Positions 4,341 to 29,808 of a stretch of 32,733 nucleotides of DNA are shown one piece after another. This stretch comes from a virus. Lineage: Duplodnaviria; Heunggongvirae; Uroviricota; Caudoviricetes. Within the stretch, counting starts at the first letter, position 1. Every line of letters starts with the position of its first letter. Made by a program: the position numbers and the translations under genes. The notes below the pieces were generated by a model. That model made no database searches. It had not been told where the DNA came from and was given only the letters and a program-made list of their open reading frames with translations. The stretch lies in the IMG/VR virus record IMGVR_UViG_2654587685_000006. The stretch is one strand, 5' to 3'.

Positions 4341-4982
4341 TCAGCGACCAATCACCACAACCTGACCACCATCCCCTTCGTCTGCCGTGCTGATCTCCTG
4401 AGAAACCACGCGTGACCCCACGCGCATTTCACCGTACAGAACAGGCAGAACATTGCCCTGGGCAACCATGTTATCCAGTGAAGAGAAATAGGTGTTCTGT
4501 TTGCCGTTATCCGTTGTCTGTGTGCGGGGAGTTCTGGGTTTAGGGGCCAGCATCTGTGCAACACCGCCAAGCGTCATACTGGCACCGAGAGAAAACAGCA
4601 GATTACTCGCCATAATTCCCACCCCCGGCATCCATATAGCAACCGCCATAACAGCAGCGCCCAGCACAGCCTGAAACACGCCGCCACTTTTAGCCCCTGC
4701 CAGACGCGGCACGATGTGGATCACGGCCCCATTCGCCAGCGGTTCATTAAGACGGGCTGATAATTCTGTTTCACCTGTATCACGCCCAGCAATGCGTACC
4801 TGATACCAGCCGTCGCTCAGCTTCTGACGAAACGCCGGAAACTGCATAGCCAGCGCCCGGATGGCTTCGGCTCCCGTTTTCACTCGCAGATCGATGCGGC
4901 GGCCAAATCGTTGTAAATCCCCGTAAAGGCAGATGCGTGCCATGCCCGGTGACGCCAGAGGGAGTGTGTGCGTCGCTGCCAT
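4341..4982 (-). CDS. I: Tail assembly protein I
   Basis: 213-aa ORF; N-terminus MAATHTLPLASPGMARICLYGDLQRFGRRIDLRVKTGAEAIRAL and C-terminus ...NVLPVLYGEMRVGSRVVSQEISTADEGDGGQVVVIGR match lambda gpI as recalled. Confidence 0.9.
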   Translation of the reverse strand: MAATHTLPLASPGMARICLYGDLQRFGRRIDLRVKTGAEAIRALAMQFPAFRQKLSDGWYQVRIAGRDTGETELSARLNEPLANGAVIHIVPRLAGAKSGGVFQAVLGAAVMAVAIWMPGVGIMASNLLFSLGASMTLGGVAQMLAPKPRTPRTQTTDNGKQNTYFSSLDNMVAQGNVLPVLYGEMRVGSRVVSQEISTADEGDGGQVVVIGR

Positions 4983-5632
4983 TTGTCGGTATACCTCTCT
5001 CGTTTGCTCAGTTGTTCAGGAATATGGTGCAGCAGCTCGCCGTCACCACAGTAAATGGCGGCATGATTCGGCACCGATGAACCAAAGCAGCACAGCAGCA
5101 CGTCGCCAGGCTGCGCCTCTGTCAGTGCGACACGGTAAAAACCAGTCGTCTCCATATTGTCAAGATAGAGATTCTGACCGTTACGCCACCAGTCATCCCC
5201 GCGATGAAAATCCGGCATCTCAATTCCCACCAGATGGTAAGCGTCCCGGAACAGCGTGTAACAGTCCGTTACCCCGTGCTCAAAGCGCCGCCCGGTGAGA
5301 TGCGGCACACAGCGGAATTTATGAATCGCCCCCCGGCAGACCAGCCACCACGGCAAATCACTCTGTACCTGCAGCCGCCGGTCGGCCTCACTCAGCCAGG
5401 GCAGACCACCGGGGTGGCTGTGGACCAGCGCCACAATCTCACCCTGCATCTCTGCCTGCAGCCAGTCTTCCGGCGACATACGGAAATACGCCTCCGGCTC
5501 ACCGGAGATATTCACGCAGGGAAAATATCTTTCCCCTTCCGGCGCTCTCACCACGAAGCCGCACGACTCCGCTGGCGCACATCGCCGGGCGTGCGCCAGA
5601 ATCGCTGATTCTGTCTCTGTCATGGGATTCAC
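4880..5632 (-). CDS. K: Tail tip assembly protein K (JAB/MPN plus NlpC/P60-like domains)
   Basis: N-terminus MNPMTETESAILAHARRCAPAESCGFVV as recalled for lambda K; HSHPGG metalloprotease-like motif and a downstream Cys/His region; 3' end overlaps I by about 100 nt in another frame. Confidence 0.85.
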   Translation of the reverse strand: MNPMTETESAILAHARRCAPAESCGFVVRAPEGERYFPCVNISGEPEAYFRMSPEDWLQAEMQGEIVALVHSHPGGLPWLSEADRRLQVQSDLPWWLVCRGAIHKFRCVPHLTGRRFEHGVTDCYTLFRDAYHLVGIEMPDFHRGDDWWRNGQNLYLDNMETTGFYRVALTEAQPGDVLLCCFGSSVPNHAAIYCGDGELLHHIPEQLSKRERYTDKWQRRTHSLWRHRAWHASAFTGIYNDLAAASICE

Positions 5633-6327
5633 TGCGAAAGTTTGTTAATGGAAAGGAAGCCGCCAAAGTTGCCGACGTTATTGCGGAACTTACAACCGCT
5701 CAGGCATTTGCTGCATTTATCCTTCGTGATGTCGGACGTTGGCTGGTCATATTCATCCGCGACCGCCGGACCGTGATAACCGCACTCATCGCCGCGATAG
5801 GTCCAGGTGCAGGTGTTGGCCAGCATAATACGTCCCGGAAAAACGGCACCATCCGTTTCCGTCGGTGTGGACAACACAAAGGAGGCACTGACCGCACTCA
5901 GTTCGCTGCACTGCTCGATGCGCCAGCGGCTGATCACCTCCTGCTCCGGATCGGCGTCGCTGTTTCCGTTGACGAAGTTCACCGCATCCAGAAAACGGGC
6001 GTAAACCTTACGCCTGACCACCGTTCCGCCGACCAGACTCTGCAGGTCTTCCGCCATCCCGGTGACCATGCCGTGCAGGTTAGAAACCGTCAGTGTCGGA
6101 CGGGCAGCACTGCCCTTGCCGTTCAGTTCAAATCCCGTCCCCTGAATGGGGTATGCCTGATACTGCCGCCCCTGCCAGGTAACCGGCTCACCTTTTTCGT
6201 TCTGCTCATTACAGAAAAAATAACGTTCACCACCGACCTCTGTCAGATCGATTTCCCAGAGCACCACCTGGGCTGACTGAGTGAGGCGTGTCGTCTCATG
6301 ATGTGTTTCCTGTGGAATATCCTGCAT
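5629..6327 (-). CDS. L: Minor tail protein L
   Basis: 232-aa ORF, same length and position as lambda gpL; Cys-rich C-terminal region (CSKCLSGCKF); overlaps K start by 4 nt. Confidence 0.9.
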   Translation of the reverse strand: MQDIPQETHHETTRLTQSAQVVLWEIDLTEVGGERYFFCNEQNEKGEPVTWQGRQYQAYPIQGTGFELNGKGSAARPTLTVSNLHGMVTGMAEDLQSLVGGTVVRRKVYARFLDAVNFVNGNSDADPEQEVISRWRIEQCSELSAVSASFVLSTPTETDGAVFPGRIMLANTCTWTYRGDECGYHGPAVADEYDQPTSDITKDKCSKCLSGCKFRNNVGNFGGFLSINKLSQ

Positions 6328-14505: not shown

Positions 14506-16122
14506 TTACGGCATACTCATCAGCAGATCTTCTTCTCCGTGCCCGGCAGTTCCGCCTCCGGAAACCGCACTGGCAGCATGCTGTGCCATAAAGCGATCAA
14601 AAAGTGCTTCCTGTGACGGTTGCGATGCCGCCGGTGCGGCTGCCAGCAACGTTTTCGCCTGCGCCACCGTCATTCCCGGTTGTTCTGCCAGTGCCTGTGC
14701 AAGTTGCTTGCGCCCTTTCGCCTCCGGCAGCGCCATAATCTGATCGCCGACACTTGCAGAACCGGCAACCGGTGCCGCCGCCAGTAACGTTTTTGCCTGG
14801 TCAACGGTCATTCCCGGCTGTTCAGCCAGCGCCTGCGCGAGTTGTTCACGCCCTTTAGCTTCCGGCAACGCCATAATCTGATCGCCTGTGCCTGCAGCAC
14901 TGGCAGCAGGGGCTGCCGCCAGAAACGCTTTCGCCTGCTCCACCGTCATCCCAGGTTGACCTGCCAGCATCTGTGCCAGTTGCTCACGCCCCTTTGCTTC
15001 CGGCAGCGCCATAATCTGATCACCCGTGCTGTCAGTACCGGCAACCGGCGCAGCTGCAAGCAACGTTTTCGCCTGCTCAACCGTCATTCCAGGCTGACCT
15101 GCCAGCATTTGCGCCAGTTGCTCGCGCCCTTTCGCCTCCTGACAATTCAGGATCCCCATCACGCGCTGATTTTCCTGGGCCACCGCTTCAGCAACGGTGA
15201 GATTTTTAACAGTCATTGCATTCTCCTTCGTAACAGAGTCATTCAGTGCAGAAACCATCACTTCAACGGCATCTGCAGCATTAATCAGTTGATCAGCCAG
15301 GCCTGCATCAATGCCTGCCTGACCGTCATAAACGGCAGCCTCGGTATTCATCACCGCCTCTGAACTCAGCCCCGTATAAAGCGCCACCTTGTCGACAAAC
15401 ATCCGGCGGGCCTCATCAATACGGCGCTGAAAATCTGCACGCACACCTGCCGGCAATGCCTGAATACTGTTGCCGTCAACCTTGTGCTGCCCGGAGTAAA
15501 TCAGCGTGATGTCCACCCCTTCCTGCGCCAGTTGTTTCTCGTAACTGGTGTGCGCCATCATCACACCAATCGAACCAATTTTTGCCGTCTGCGTGACCAG
15601 CCGACGCGTACAGGCTGCCGCCAGCAACATGGCGGCTGAACAGGCCATATCATTACACAGCGCCCACACGGGCTTCTGTTCCCGCAGACGGTAAATCATG
15701 TCAGCACAGTCAAACGCCCCGGCAGCCTGACCGCCCGGACTGTCGATATCCAGTAAAATGCCGCGTACATCCGGATCATTCACCGCTGACTTAAGACGGG
15801 CCGTCAGGCCGTCATAACCGGTCATACCGGAATATGGCCGCAGGGCACCCATTTTATGTACCAGCGTGCCGCTCACCGGCAGAATGGCAATACCATTTTT
15901 CACCTGGTAACTCTTTACCGGACGCGGACCACCAGTCATATAATCGGTAACCGCCAGCTGCATACCATCGGCATCAAACTGAACGGCCTGCTGCGGAACG
16001 GCAAGGCTGCCCGCCCCCATCTCCTTACCCAGTGCGCAAAAGAAAACCCGCGCATAGGCGGGTTCCAGTAAAAGCGGCTCATTAAATGCCATGGCGGCAA
16101 TATGTGATAAATTACAGCGCAT
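14506..16122 (-). CDS. C: Head maturation protease C (S49/ClpP-like) with nested scaffold (Nu3-like) C-terminal region carrying 4 tandem repeats
   Basis: N-terminus ...HIAAMAFNEPLLLEPAYARVFFCAL...GILLDIDSPGG...PVWALCNDMACSAA...TGSIGVMMAH matches lambda gpC as recalled; C-terminal third is four 46-aa tandem repeats. Confidence 0.85.
   Translation of the reverse strand: MRCNLSHIAAMAFNEPLLLEPAYARVFFCALGKEMGAGSLAVPQQAVQFDADGMQLAVTDYMTGGPRPVKSYQVKNGIAILPVSGTLVHKMGALRPYSGMTGYDGLTARLKSAVNDPDVRGILLDIDSPGGQAAGAFDCADMIYRLREQKPVWALCNDMACSAAMLLAAACTRRLVTQTAKIGSIGVMMAHTSYEKQLAQEGVDITLIYSGQHKVDGNSIQALPAGVRADFQRRIDEARRMFVDKVALYTGLSSEAVMNTEAAVYDGQAGIDAGLADQLINAADAVEVMVSALNDSVTKENAMTVKNLTVAEAVAQENQRVMGILNCQEAKGREQLAQMLAGQPGMTVEQAKTLLAAAPVAGTDSTGDQIMALPEAKGREQLAQMLAGQPGMTVEQAKAFLAAAPAASAAGTGDQIMALPEAKGREQLAQALAEQPGMTVDQAKTLLAAAPVAGSASVGDQIMALPEAKGRKQLAQALAEQPGMTVAQAKTLLAAAPAASQPSQEALFDRFMAQHAASAVSGGGTAGHGEEDLLMSMP
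14623..15160 (-). repeat. 4x tandem repeat, about 138 bp unit, inside C/Nu3-like coding region
   Basis: Protein motif IMALPEAKGREQLAQ(M/A)LA(G/E)QPGMTV(E/D)QAK(T/A)(L/F)LAAAP... recurs at aa 329, 375, 421 and 467 (46-aa period); DNA repeats are near-identical. I recall a single copy of this motif in lambda gpC. Confidence 0.85.
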
Positions 16123-20520: not shown

Positions 20521-20913
20521 GGCAGGGCACCCCACCGGAAGGACCCGCACAAATGAGAGCGTTTGTCATTAACATTTACAGATAAGATGACGTACATCAT
20601 TGAAACGCCATTCAGCCATATACCGGCAGCATTCGTAGTTGCACTCCGTAACTCTGCGACTTAGGTTAAAAACATGGCCCTCTTTTGCCACCGGCAAATC
20701 TTCAATGGATTTCCCCTGCCGGTTTTTTATTTTCGTCGATGCATAACATTGCATTTACATCAATAGCGGCTATTGTCATTAGTATGTTGCATCAATGCAT
20801 GGGTGGTATTGGCGGTCTTCGCCGGCCGGTTCTGTGTAGCTGCTCCCTGTGACCGGTTTTTTATTTCTCACATTACAGCACCCCCTTAGAGTGAAGGGCT
20901 GCTGTAATGCCTG

Positions 20914-21312
20914 TTACTCACGAATCAGGCGAGCACTCTTACTATTCATTTCAATACGCGAATACTGCGGATTACCATCAATGATGTCTGTCATTACGAA
21001 CACCTCACCCGGCTGCAGTTCAACTGCACCTTCCGGTGATTTCATACCGGCAAATACCGGACAGCCCGGATGGCGATCATCTTCTGTTGCTTCCAGCATT
21101 GACTCACCAAACCACGCCGTTGTGGCACGACCATCAGCAGCCTTGTAGTGGATCAAGTACTGGTTTTCGCCATCCGCATACTGCGCGCGAGCTTTAACCT
21201 CACCCCATTCATCACTGATGCGCATCTCCACCAGTTGTGACAGTTCAAACTTAAACGGAACAGCCACAGCACCAATTGCAACCGGTTTGTTTTCTGTTTT
21301 TTCCATCATCAT
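20914..21312 (-). CDS. Hypothetical protein (132 aa, soluble), accessory gene between lysis cassette and cos
   Basis: Intact ORF; I do not recognise the family. Followed by a long hairpin at 20871-20909. Confidence 0.5.
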   Translation of the reverse strand: MMMEKTENKPVAIGAVAVPFKFELSQLVEMRISDEWGEVKARAQYADGENQYLIHYKAADGRATTAWFGESMLEATEDDRHPGCPVFAGMKSPEGAVELQPGEVFVMTDIIDGNPQYSRIEMNSKSARLIRE

Positions 21313-21368
21313 CTCCAGATATAAAAAAGCCCCGCATTTGCGGGGCTACAAACAGGCATCACAGCCAG

Positions 21369-21584
21369 TTAGCTAAGTCCGACAGACATAAAATCATCAC
21401 TACCTAAACGATGGGAACCATAACGAACTTCATACTCCCCATTCAATTCAGAGCGTTTAGACTTTGCGCCATCCTCCGTTGCATAAATGCCGACCAGATG
21501 CCAGGGTTTGTCACGTACTACAGCCCAACCAAGAACCCATCCCTGATTATCAGGCTCAGCCTTCAGGTTATTTTCTACAAACAT
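21369..21584 (-). CDS. Hypothetical small protein (about 71 aa)
   Basis: Preferred start MFVENNLKAEP with AAGGAGAA SD; family not recognised. Confidence 0.4.
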   Translation of the reverse strand: MFVENNLKAEPDNQGWVLGWAVVRDKPWHLVGIYATEDGAKSKRSELNGEYEVRYGSHRLGSDDFMSVGLS

Positions 21585-21624
21585 AGTGTTCTCCTTTTGG
21601 GTACCCAGAGACATTCTATGTCAT

Positions 21625-21849
21625 TCATGAAACAGGCAACAACGTGGCCGTTACAATCCCTGCCATATTTGCGTTCAGATCACATTCAACAGAAATTTCT
21701 TCATCCGTGGCATCCACTTCATATGTCCGGGAATAACACTCCGTGCATTTACCACTGAAGATATCCTTAACCAGAACACGTCCACGCTGCAAAACCCTAA
21801 ATGGAATCGTTCCGTTAAAGGGCTTTACGGTTACCAGTAATCTCTTCAT
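21625..21849 (-). CDS. Hypothetical small protein (about 74 aa)
   Basis: Preferred start MKRLLVTVKPF... with GGAGGGG SD; family not recognised. Confidence 0.4.
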   Translation of the reverse strand: MKRLLVTVKPFNGTIPFRVLQRGRVLVKDIFSGKCTECYSRTYEVDATDEEISVECDLNANMAGIVTATLLPVS

Positions 21850-22023
21850 ATCCCCTCCGGATAAAAATGCCCCTTGCCGCCCGGGCTGTTGTTCAAAGTT
21901 CATCCTGATTCGGGCAAGATTCAGAATGTATAAGACAAATTGGCACACACAGCAGAATTTCATGCTTTCTGGACGCTGGCGCATCCTTCATTTTTCAGCG
22001 AAATATTCTGCTCTTACGGGCGA

Positions 22024-22206
22024 TCAGCTCTGCAGACACTGTCGAACACCGTCGACAATTTCGCAGACCTGAGAAGCCGTATCGAAAAGCTGGCGCGCCT
22101 TATCCAGGCTGACGCACCCCCCCAATAAAAAAGGCACCAGTATCGCTACCAGTGCCCATTTCGCCGCCGTTCGCGGCATTCTGTGTGTCCAGTGTTTTCG
22201 CGTCAT
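22024..22206 (-). CDS. Small predicted lipoprotein (about 60 aa)
   Basis: MTRKHWTHRMPRTAAKWALVAILVPFLLGGC: positively charged n-region, hydrophobic core, L-G-G-C lipobox; short Cys-containing mature part. Not similar to lambda Bor or Rz1 as recalled. Confidence 0.5.
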   Translation of the reverse strand: MTRKHWTHRMPRTAAKWALVAILVPFLLGGCVSLDKARQLFDTASQVCEIVDGVRQCLQS

Positions 22207-22214
22207 ATCACCAC

Positions 22215-22331
22215 TCACGATTTCAGAGCAACAATCAATTTTGCCAGCCCATACAGTATCGGAGACACGGCGATGCCAACCGCCACCCACTTAATGGCAA
22301 AAGCCACCGCCCGAATAAAATCAGCACTCAT
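22215..22331 (-). CDS. Possible small single-TM peptide (38 aa)
   Basis: MSADFIRAVAFAIKWVAVGIAVSPILYGLAKLIVALKS; weak SD; immediately upstream of the lipoprotein gene. Confidence 0.25.
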   Translation of the reverse strand: MSADFIRAVAFAIKWVAVGIAVSPILYGLAKLIVALKS

Positions 22332-22560
22332 CTGTTTAAATAAATTGTTGTGTATGCAACCAGTGCGGTACAAATAATCCATGCAACTGGCGTTAGTATG
22401 CGTCTGATGCCCCGGCATACCGCGATGATTTTTGCGGCATCATCAGCCCCTCTGCGGGGTGGTTTCTGCTTTTATCATCAGATCATCTCCAAATTTATCT
22501 TTCGTCGTGTTAGGCTTTACTGGCATGAATGATCCCCATGCGCATTCACAAAATGAATCC

Positions 22561-22597
22561 ATAAACACAAAGCCCCGATTGCTCCAACAACCGGGGC
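22561..22597 (-). terminator. Rho-independent terminator just after the endolysin gene
   Basis: Minus-strand GCCCCGG-(loop)-CGGGGC followed by TTTGTGTTTAT, starting a few nt after the endolysin TAA stop. Confidence 0.5.
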
Positions 22598-22607
22598 TTT
22601 GCCTTAT

Positions 22608-24109: not shown

Positions 24110-24184
<75 letters not shown>

Positions 24185-24187
24185 ATA

Positions 24188-24263
<76 letters not shown>

Positions 24264-24265
24264 AC

Positions 24266-24342
24266 TGGCCCGCCACCGAGGACTCGAACCTCGCACCATC
24301 AACTTAGAAGGTTGATGCTCTATCCGGATGAGCTAGTAGCGG
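24266..24342 (-). tRNA. tRNA-Arg (anticodon UCU)
   Basis: CCGCTACTAGCTCATCCGGATAGAGCATCAACCTTCTAAGTTGATGGTGCGAGGTTCGAGTCCTCGGTGGCGGGCCA; anticodon loop CUUCUAA; reads AGA/AGG. Confidence 0.85.
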
Positions 24343-24343
24343 C

Positions 24344-24419
24344 TGGTGGCCCTTGCTGGATTTGAACCAGCGACCTGGCGATTATGAGTCGCTCGCTCTC
24401 ACCACTGAGCTAAAGGGCC
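24344..24419 (-). tRNA. tRNA-Ile2-like (anticodon CAU, probably lysidine-modified to read AUA; Met not excluded)
   Basis: GGCCCTTTAGCTCAGTGGTGAGAGCGAGCGACTCATAATCGCCAGGTCGCTGGTTCAAATCCAGCAAGGGCCACCA; body resembles E. coli ileX/ileY-type tRNA as recalled. Confidence 0.8.
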
Positions 24420-29361: not shown

Positions 29362-29517
29362 TTACTCCTCAGGTTCGTAAGCTGTGAAGACAGCGACCTC
29401 CGTCTGGCCGGTTCGGATTCGTACCTCGCAGAGGTCTTTCCTCGTTACCAGTGCCGTCACTATGACGGTTAAACAGATGACGATAAGGGCGATTAACATC
29501 GCCTTTTGCTGCTTCAT
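29362..29517 (-). CDS. hok: Hok/Gef family type I toxin
   Basis: MKQQKAMLIALIVICLTVIVTALVTRKDLCEVRIRTGQTEVAVFTAYEPEE: 51 aa, single TM helix, conserved Hok C-terminal motif; an in-frame upstream extension may correspond to a mok-like leader. Confidence 0.85.
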   Translation of the reverse strand: MKQQKAMLIALIVICLTVIVTALVTRKDLCEVRIRTGQTEVAVFTAYEPEE

Positions 29518-29808
29518 AGCCTGCTTCTCCTTGCCTTTCGGCACGTAAGAGGCTAACCTACATTTGTGAGACATAGATTGAGCCTCAGATTAATGTTAAG
29601 CGTCTTGCAGGACGCGTAATGTTAACTGGGGCTTTTCTCTATCTGCCTTTTGGTGTTCATGCCTGAGGCAGATAGCCTCAAGCACCCGCAGCAATTCTAC
29701 TTAACTCCCCTTTCACTGCAAACCGTTTTTATCCCCAGCGGCAAATCGAATACACAACAAGTGCTGCCGCCATTGCAATTCCTGTCGTTGTGAATGCCTC
29801 CGGCCAGG

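Follow-up and report, generated by a model that had tools for sequence, protein, structure and literature searches.

A fourfold module in a lambda-type phage head protease and scaffold gene, probably old and maintained at the protein level

Why does a phage head gene carry the same stretch of protein four times in a row, and what does the repetition say about its history? The question is raised by a 32,733-nucleotide (nt) stretch of DNA from a virus of the class Caudoviricetes (IMG/VR record IMGVR_UViG_2654587685_000006), referred to here at its full length as the window. On its minus strand, the C-terminal third of an S49 peptidase gene encoding 538 amino acids (aa) contains four in-frame units of 46 aa. 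The original prediction, made from the letters of the sequence, placed these units in a homologue of the lambda protease/scaffold gene C/Nu3 and read them as nearly identical DNA copies, recently expanded, prone to recombinational changes in number and a likely hotspot for collapse in sequence assembly. The units and the gene have stood up to scrutiny, whereas the recent origin and the assembly hazard have not. The reading that we consider likely is that the array is a Nu3-type module in four copies, shared by the protease and its nested scaffold, kept by selection on the protein since old duplications and with a putative role in docking.

The array itself is unambiguous. Tandem Repeats Finder reported a single array at 14631-15139, with a period of 138 nt, 3.7 copies, 80% consensus matches and a score of 591, and no other array with a score of at least 60 across the 32.7 kb of the window; the minus-strand reading frame resolves it into the four units, and their number, period and position are thus as originally described (Table 1). 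Each unit is formed of a 36-aa core, I[LM]xxxEAKGRxQLAQxLAxQPGMTVxQAKxxLAAAP, and a stretch of 8-10 Ala, Gly, Ser or Thr residues; in the last unit, the final 10 residues are part of the C-terminal tail of the protein and not a linker. The four boxes match a hidden Markov model (HMM) of the unit with E-values of 1e-26 to 1e-28, the model being built from those same four units. The tail that closes the protein is common to phage 21 and, at a greater distance, to lambda, and its residues F508, M512 and P538 are invariant across 40 homologues.

Table 1. Coordinates of the repeat units, the gene that contains them and other features of the window
Feature	Coordinates	Strand	Details and basis
gpC-like head maturation protease/scaffold gene	14506..16122	-	538 aa and stop; 11-nt overlap with the end of the portal gene
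Protease part, aa 1-300	15223..16122	-	SppA/ClpP-like S49 fold region and C-terminal helices; SppA matches, identity to lambda gpC
Predicted nested in-frame scaffold gene (equivalent of Nu3 and phage 21 gp6)	14506..15216	-	M303-P538, 236 aa and stop; start alignment
Shine-Dalgarno sequence AAGGAG	15223..15228	-	6 nt 5' of the internal ATG; read from the sequence
Repeat unit R1, aa 324-369	15016..15153	-	ILNCQEAKGREQLAQMLAGQPGMTVEQAKTLLAAAP, then linker VAGTDSTGDQ
Repeat unit R2, aa 370-415	14878..15015	-	IMALPEAKGREQLAQMLAGQPGMTVEQAKAFLAAAP, then linker AASAAGTGDQ
Repeat unit R3, aa 416-461	14740..14877	-	IMALPEAKGREQLAQALAEQPGMTVDQAKTLLAAAP, then linker VAGSASVGDQ
Repeat unit R4, aa 462-507	14602..14739	-	IMALPEAKGRKQLAQALAEQPGMTVAQAKTLLAAAP, then start of tail, AASQPSQEAL
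Conserved C-terminal tail, aa 508-538	14509..14601	-	FDRFMAQH...EEDLLMSMP; three-way alignment with phage 21 and lambda
Four prophage tRNA genes	24110-24419	-	Gly(TCC), Lys(TTT), Arg(TCT), CAT anticodon
sok antitoxin RNA	29512-29687	-	Rfam RF01794, full-length, 121.6 bits

At the DNA level, the copies are far from the near-identity first assigned to them, and from that of a variable-number tandem repeat. Pairs of units are 65-78% identical over 138 nt and 74-82% identical over the 108-nt core, with the longest exact run shared being 18 nt in register and 23 nt anywhere in the gene, while at the protein level the four cores are 83-97% identical. Any two units differ at 31-48 nt, and 20-26 of these differences fall on third codon positions. 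Rough Nei–Gojobori estimates for the cores give a synonymous divergence (dS) of 0.66-1.42 and a nonsynonymous divergence (dN) of 0.03-0.17, with dN/dS between 0.03 and 0.25; the linkers are much less constrained, at 0.4-1.1. For scale, the protease domain of the same gene has a dS of 1.17 against phage 21, 0.63 against a Cronobacter relative with three units and 0.22 against a relative with five. As the divergence between units is comparable to that from phage 21, the duplications appear to be old, about the age of the split from phage 21-type genes, and the idea of a recent expansion loses its footing. The bias towards third positions and the low dN/dS of the cores point to an old array selected for its protein, neither a recent expansion nor an assembly artefact; judged from these substitution patterns, the amino-acid sequence has been preserved while the duplications of the four-unit array aged in this lineage. 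With synonymous sites near saturation, little DNA homology is left between the copies, and their number is stable.

The pattern of differences also bears on two explanations that would take the array out of the realm of protein evolution. The first is that fewer real copies were misassembled into four. Nothing speaks for it beyond the difficulty that assemblers have with tandem repeats in general; each copy carries its own 31-48 substitutions and the frame is intact, the identical gene is found in the complete genome NZ_CP127034.1 and the array in 104 complete genomes, and further assemblies with the array come from several sources and represent E. coli, E. marmotae, E. albertii, Salmonella and Citrobacter. 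We give this explanation practically no weight. The second is that the periodicity serves an element acting as DNA or RNA, or an antisense gene, rather than the protein of the minus strand. A plus-strand open reading frame (ORF) of 173 aa does run through the repeat (14842..15363), and in the newer record of phage 21, the region has marked pattern matches to CII binding sites. However, the differences cluster at third positions of the minus-strand frame and leave the amino acids intact, Rfam has no match at the repeat, and antisense ORFs are to be expected in coding repeats that are rich in GC and alanine. As selection acts on the minus-strand frame, the ORF is most likely a by-product of such a composition, and we regard a nonprotein role of the periodicity as highly improbable.

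A more serious contender was the one first proposed, that the array is a recently expanded, unstable minisatellite, prone to collapse in assembly, and here the copy numbers of relatives are informative. Our unit counts per protein cover the best 120-150 of at least 1,666 homologues, and 7,697 matching places were found in E. coli genomes. Three units are the commonest count among the best 120 database homologues, with 74 proteins, followed by four units with 41 and five with three; two units and one unit are found in one protein each. For the most part, the three-unit proteins belong to prophages of Salmonella, to other E. coli prophages, to Edwardsiella and to Trabulsiella. Within the same set, all proteins that reach 89% identity to the query have four units. 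Most of these close relatives are 538 aa long, two being 535 aa through a 3-aa deletion; their hosts are E. coli, E. marmotae, E. albertii, Salmonella and Citrobacter, and their clusters represent well over 1,000 deposited sequences (e.g., 826 for P0011 and 470 for P0030). In 104 of 5,426 complete E. coli genomes, the array is present, collinear and of the same length, at 85.5-100% identity, the sole change in length being a 9-nt linker deletion in some genomes. Copy-number polymorphism among close relatives, which would mark a variable-number tandem repeat, was thus not seen at the window locus. With 104 genomes of the same length and all of the closest proteins carrying four units, neither instability nor assembly collapse is supported there.

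The wider family, on the other hand, is clearly capable of changing the number of units. In the five-unit protein P0001 (and in P0007, from a second assembly), units 2 and 3 are identical in DNA and form an exact repeat of 142 nt at an offset of 129. The units of this five-unit relative (L005) match those of the window by position, at 93-98% nt identity, and R2 of the window is 98% identical to both unit 2 and unit 3; given this correspondence, the five-unit form is best seen as a recent duplication of R2. The variant locus lies at 3001-4737 of L005, from E. coli GCA_040149825.1, and is known from two assemblies; its duplicated unit, unlike the copies of the window, could be unstable or misassembled. 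The three-unit Cronobacter relative (L006) contains an exact repeat of 152 nt, two proteins (P0097 and P0100) have an out-of-register hybrid unit, another (P0120) has two units of which the first is a hybrid of Tri1 and Tri2, named after boxes of phage 21 described below, and P0044 has a larger internal duplication. The predicted changes in copy number by recombination are therefore real in the wider family, through long exact repeats and hybrid units, and are not seen at the window locus. The diverged DNA of the window units, with their short exact repeats and high dS, and the constant length of the array largely refute the minisatellite there, and we hold it to be very unlikely. In this lineage, the repeat is neither a problem for assembly, as the collinear array in complete genomes demonstrates, nor a useful typing marker.

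The phages with three, four and five units are otherwise much alike: their major capsid proteins are 95-97% identical, their portal proteins 94-95% and their protease domains 90-95%. With head proteins so nearly identical, the number of units shifts without a change in head design. Two proteins of unusual build were seen among the homologues. One, of 610 aa (P0042), is annotated as 'phage baseplate assembly protein V', matches 82% of the query at 97% identity and ends within unit 3; the other (P0059) has 743 aa and one unit. Both look like fusions or miscalled genes.

The identity of the gene rests on several similarities. The Pfam family PF01343, Peptidase_S49, matches aa 146-290 (E-value 1.6e-33; 116 bits against a cut-off of 24.9), and PHROG 53, the head maturation proteases, matches at an E-value of 1e-219. 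A sequence search of the Protein Data Bank (PDB) with the whole protein returned SppA alone (3rst and 4kwb; E-value 2e-16, query aa 76-290), with nothing for the repeat region. The protease domain is 62% identical to that of lambda gpC, and residues S162 and K214 do not vary across 40 homologues; S162, the putative nucleophile, is aligned to lambda S166, for which a role has reportedly been described. The unit HMM matches lambda gpC at aa 364-399 with an E-value of 3e-16, and the tails of the two proteins align too. On the minus strand, the gene order is terminase large subunit, gpW-like gene, portal, S49 gene, gpD-like gene (111 aa), gpE-like gene (342 aa) and FI, and the neighbours in relatives carry PF05136, PF02924 and PF03864. 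By domain, by site between the portal and the decoration and capsid genes, and by identity to gpC, the gene is the lambda C/Nu3 homologue that it had been taken for. The same gene, 100% identical, is deposited as WP_052921090.1, 'S49 family peptidase', from E. coli TW10690, where it lies between the portal and head decoration genes, and the four-unit gene is already present, unremarked and under that label, in many RefSeq genomes. Such genes would merit annotation as a protease with a nested scaffold, not just as an S49 family peptidase.

In lambda (NC_001416; C at 4418..5737, nu3 at 5132..5737), the gene likewise encodes an S49 protease and, nested in the same frame, a scaffold with the same C-terminus, and the order of the portal, C/Nu3, D and E genes is as in the window. 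For the window, we predict a separate scaffold translated from M303. The internal ATG (15216..15214) is aligned to the annotated start of phage 21 gp6, residue 302 of gp5, whose context AGAGGAGGCACTATG carries a ribosome-binding site annotation; the equivalent context in the Cronobacter relative is CAGGAGGACAGGATG, with CAGGAGG upstream of the start. In the displayed rows of homologues, Met is found at or within two alignment columns of the M303 position, 20 of 40 having it in the exact column. The lambda Nu3 starts 64 codons further upstream, at M239 (C codon 239), where the window gene has Ile. The four units make up 184 aa, or 78%, of the predicted 236-aa scaffold; as the nested frame spans the array, the number of units would set the length of the predicted scaffold, a consequence already drawn when the repeat was first noted and borne out by the alignment of the Shine-Dalgarno sequence and ATG with the gp6 start.

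The repeat differs most plainly from lambda in number. Lambda gpC has exactly one unit, ILNCEEAHGREEQARVLAETPGMTVKTARRILAAAP (aa 364-399), followed by the tail, against four in the window; the single lambda motif had been quoted correctly, and four copies in lambda are thereby ruled out. Lambda also has a 30-aa insert before its unit that the window lacks. The closest described counterpart is found in genes 5/6 of phage 21 (M81255.1; also OL657228.1), which agree with the window in gene position, S49 domain, repeated module and C-terminal tail and are 73% identical in nt over 64% of the gene. The GenBank record M81255.1, a 1990s entry of the phage 21 head operon, labels a 'Tri1 box', a 'Tri box' and a 'Tri3 box' with the note 'function unknown', and with three such boxes annotated, the multiplication of the module is already on record; our literature searches found no paper dealing with the Tri boxes or with repeats of Nu3-type scaffolds. 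Phage 21 has three units at corresponding positions and the window four, an array of at least three Tri boxes in tandem. The units of phage 21 are more diverged from each other, cores 1 and 2 having about 58% identity by our own count against the 83-97% of the window cores, and its scaffold is 200 aa long against the 236 aa predicted here. Among units 2-4 of the window, dN is 0.03-0.10, whereas it is 0.19-0.41 between them and the phage 21 boxes; they were therefore duplicated or homogenised within the lineage of the window. A one-to-one pairing of the four units with the phage 21 boxes could not be resolved, the divergence being too high (nt identity 0.56-0.69). With one unit, lambda Nu3 comes to 201 aa, and phage 21 gp6 comes to 200 aa with three; the near-equality could reflect a constraint on the length of the scaffold or be a coincidence.

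The same architecture recurs in the S49 peptidases of Gifsy-like Salmonella and other enterobacterial prophages (e.g., P0048 and P0052; about 500 aa). These peptidases account for the majority of the 74 proteins with three units in the best 120, at 57-69% identity, and have three position-specific units and no fourth. The array of the window is thus an ordinary four-unit copy-number variant of the lambda and phage 21 protease-scaffold gene with Tri-box repeats. Further afield, a profile of the four units found 371 matches at an E-value of at most 1e-3 among 1.84 billion representative proteins. Of the best 150 of these, 132 have one unit, 13 have two and five have three; among full-length proteins (at least 380 aa), a single unit is found in 56 of 58, always near the C-terminus, with a median tail of 49 aa after the last unit. 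The motif can be detected even in very distant proteins, such as an S49 protein of alphaproteobacterial type (P0138) and that of cyanophage S-ESS1, the latter with 45% identity over 49 columns. As the single unit dominates the profile matches, one copy is the ancestral and normal state, and multi-copy arrays are limited to one enterobacterial clade. The module is thus single in most phages of the family, lambda included, and was multiplied to three, four and five copies in the enterobacterial lineage.

Structure prediction gives some idea of what is being repeated. AlphaFold2 produced the same periodic pattern of helices in runs on the full-length protein and on the scaffold only: in each unit, a helix of 6 residues, a short turn, a helix of 8 residues, a loop and a helix of 10 residues, formed of the elements IMALPE, GREQLAQxL, the turn QPGMT and VxQAKxLLAAA. 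The predicted local distance difference test score (pLDDT) reaches about 66-82 across the units, whereas most linkers fall below 50, and the models suggest helical modules on flexible linkers. With a low predicted template modelling score (pTM), the units have no defined arrangement relative to each other.

What might such modules do? In P22 gp8, 80alpha and SPP1, the scaffold ends in a C-terminal helix-turn-helix, a small helical hairpin that docks to the capsid protein. The parallel is an analogy only: these scaffolds have one coat-binding domain at the extreme C-terminus, whereas the window has four units and then the 31-aa tail, and no match between P22-type domains and the units was found in sequence or, within the limits given below for the Foldseek search, in fold. 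We suspect that the modules would act as interaction sites through which scaffold and protease dock, within the procapsid, to the capsid protein, to the portal and/or to one another, and that four of them on flexible linkers would make the scaffold longer and multivalent; the protease would then degrade the scaffold before DNA packaging, as in lambda. For lambda, the reported partners of Nu3 are the portal B, the protease C, the capsid protein E and Nu3 itself, and its degradation is believed to be carried out by C (PMC3224144). Being shared by the protease and the scaffold, the C-terminus is the obvious candidate for the part that brings the two into the procapsid, and the purifying selection on the cores, the freedom of the linkers and the deep conservation of the motif argue for a binding module over a filler.

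Several observations weigh against this interpretation. The nested scaffold is a prediction, and the dS values between units, with only some 27 synonymous sites to each pair, are rough and noisy, although their direction is clear. The overall confidence of AlphaFold2 was low, with a mean pLDDT of 56.5 for the full-length and 67.7 for the scaffold-only run and a pTM of 0.26-0.32; the scaffold-only model improves on the other locally but, at a pTM of 0.26, lacks a global fold. Foldseek found no match in the PDB at an E-value of at most 0.001 (the best being 2.7), in a search with a model of pTM 0.26 and small modules that are hard to match; in BFVD, it found weak matches to other phage S49 and prohead proteases alone, and neither Pfam nor NCBIfam contains a model that covers the unit. 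Subthreshold matches to the HU N-terminus, DUF732, YmfL and other families were put down to the noise that Ala-rich helices produce. There is also a description of lambda gpNu3 as an intrinsically disordered protein, in which case the helices may not form until binding takes place. Finally, the conserved tail could be the element that docks to the capsid, with the units serving as oligomerisation sites or spacers.

A stronger form of the last objection is the main rival: the units would be expendable spacers that set the length of the scaffold, or a sacrificial substrate cut in the linkers into pieces that leave the shell, with docking left to the tail alone. The tolerance of three, four or five units on a nearly identical capsid protein fits such a role, as do the conservation of the tail from lambda to the window gene, the equal length that lambda Nu3 and phage 21 gp6 reach by different means, and the predicted disorder of the linkers. 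The selection seen on the cores is, however, not what one would expect of a mere spacer, and neither is a motif that can still be recognised in S49 proteins of cyanophage and of alphaproteobacterial type; the linkers, furthermore, are poorly conserved except for the D-Q/R that precedes the next unit. As a spacer would not be so conserved, we consider this explanation unlikely, even though it is the strongest of the alternatives.

A module maintained for its protein and probably involved in docking thus remains our preferred reading. It can be taken a step further, with each unit as a self-contained docking or oligomerisation module and the number of units setting the valency and reach of both scaffold and protease, a tentative extension that we would not bet on. 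If it were true, the natural series of one to five units, three of its members on capsid proteins that are 95-97% identical, would amount to a ready experiment on how the valency of a scaffold affects the nucleation and fidelity of procapsids, and the synonymous divergence under a conserved protein would imply that none of the four modules is dispensable. Alternatively, arrays may survive only after their DNA homology has eroded.

Elsewhere, the window is about 98.5% identical overall to a prophage of E. coli TW10690, with one segment replaced: 20733-22603 is not matched in the TW10690 prophage, which is 97-99% identical elsewhere and has about 0.9 kb in place of this segment. Given the replaced segment and this level of identity, the window represents a related mosaic prophage and not the TW10690 genome. 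Among the tRNA genes listed in Table 1, the one with the CAT anticodon is called Met by ARAGORN and Ile by RefSeq in the TW10690 relative. The sok RNA adjoins a hokD gene annotated in the relative, where a Doc-type toxin gene is annotated nearby.

Overall, the importance of the locus is modest and lies in what it tells about the family: the C-terminus of the lambda-type scaffold and protease is built of a repeatable module, found in one, three, four and five copies on nearly the same capsid protein. Apparently, nobody has assigned a function to this module, and the copy-number series provides a handle on how scaffold and protease are recruited to procapsids.

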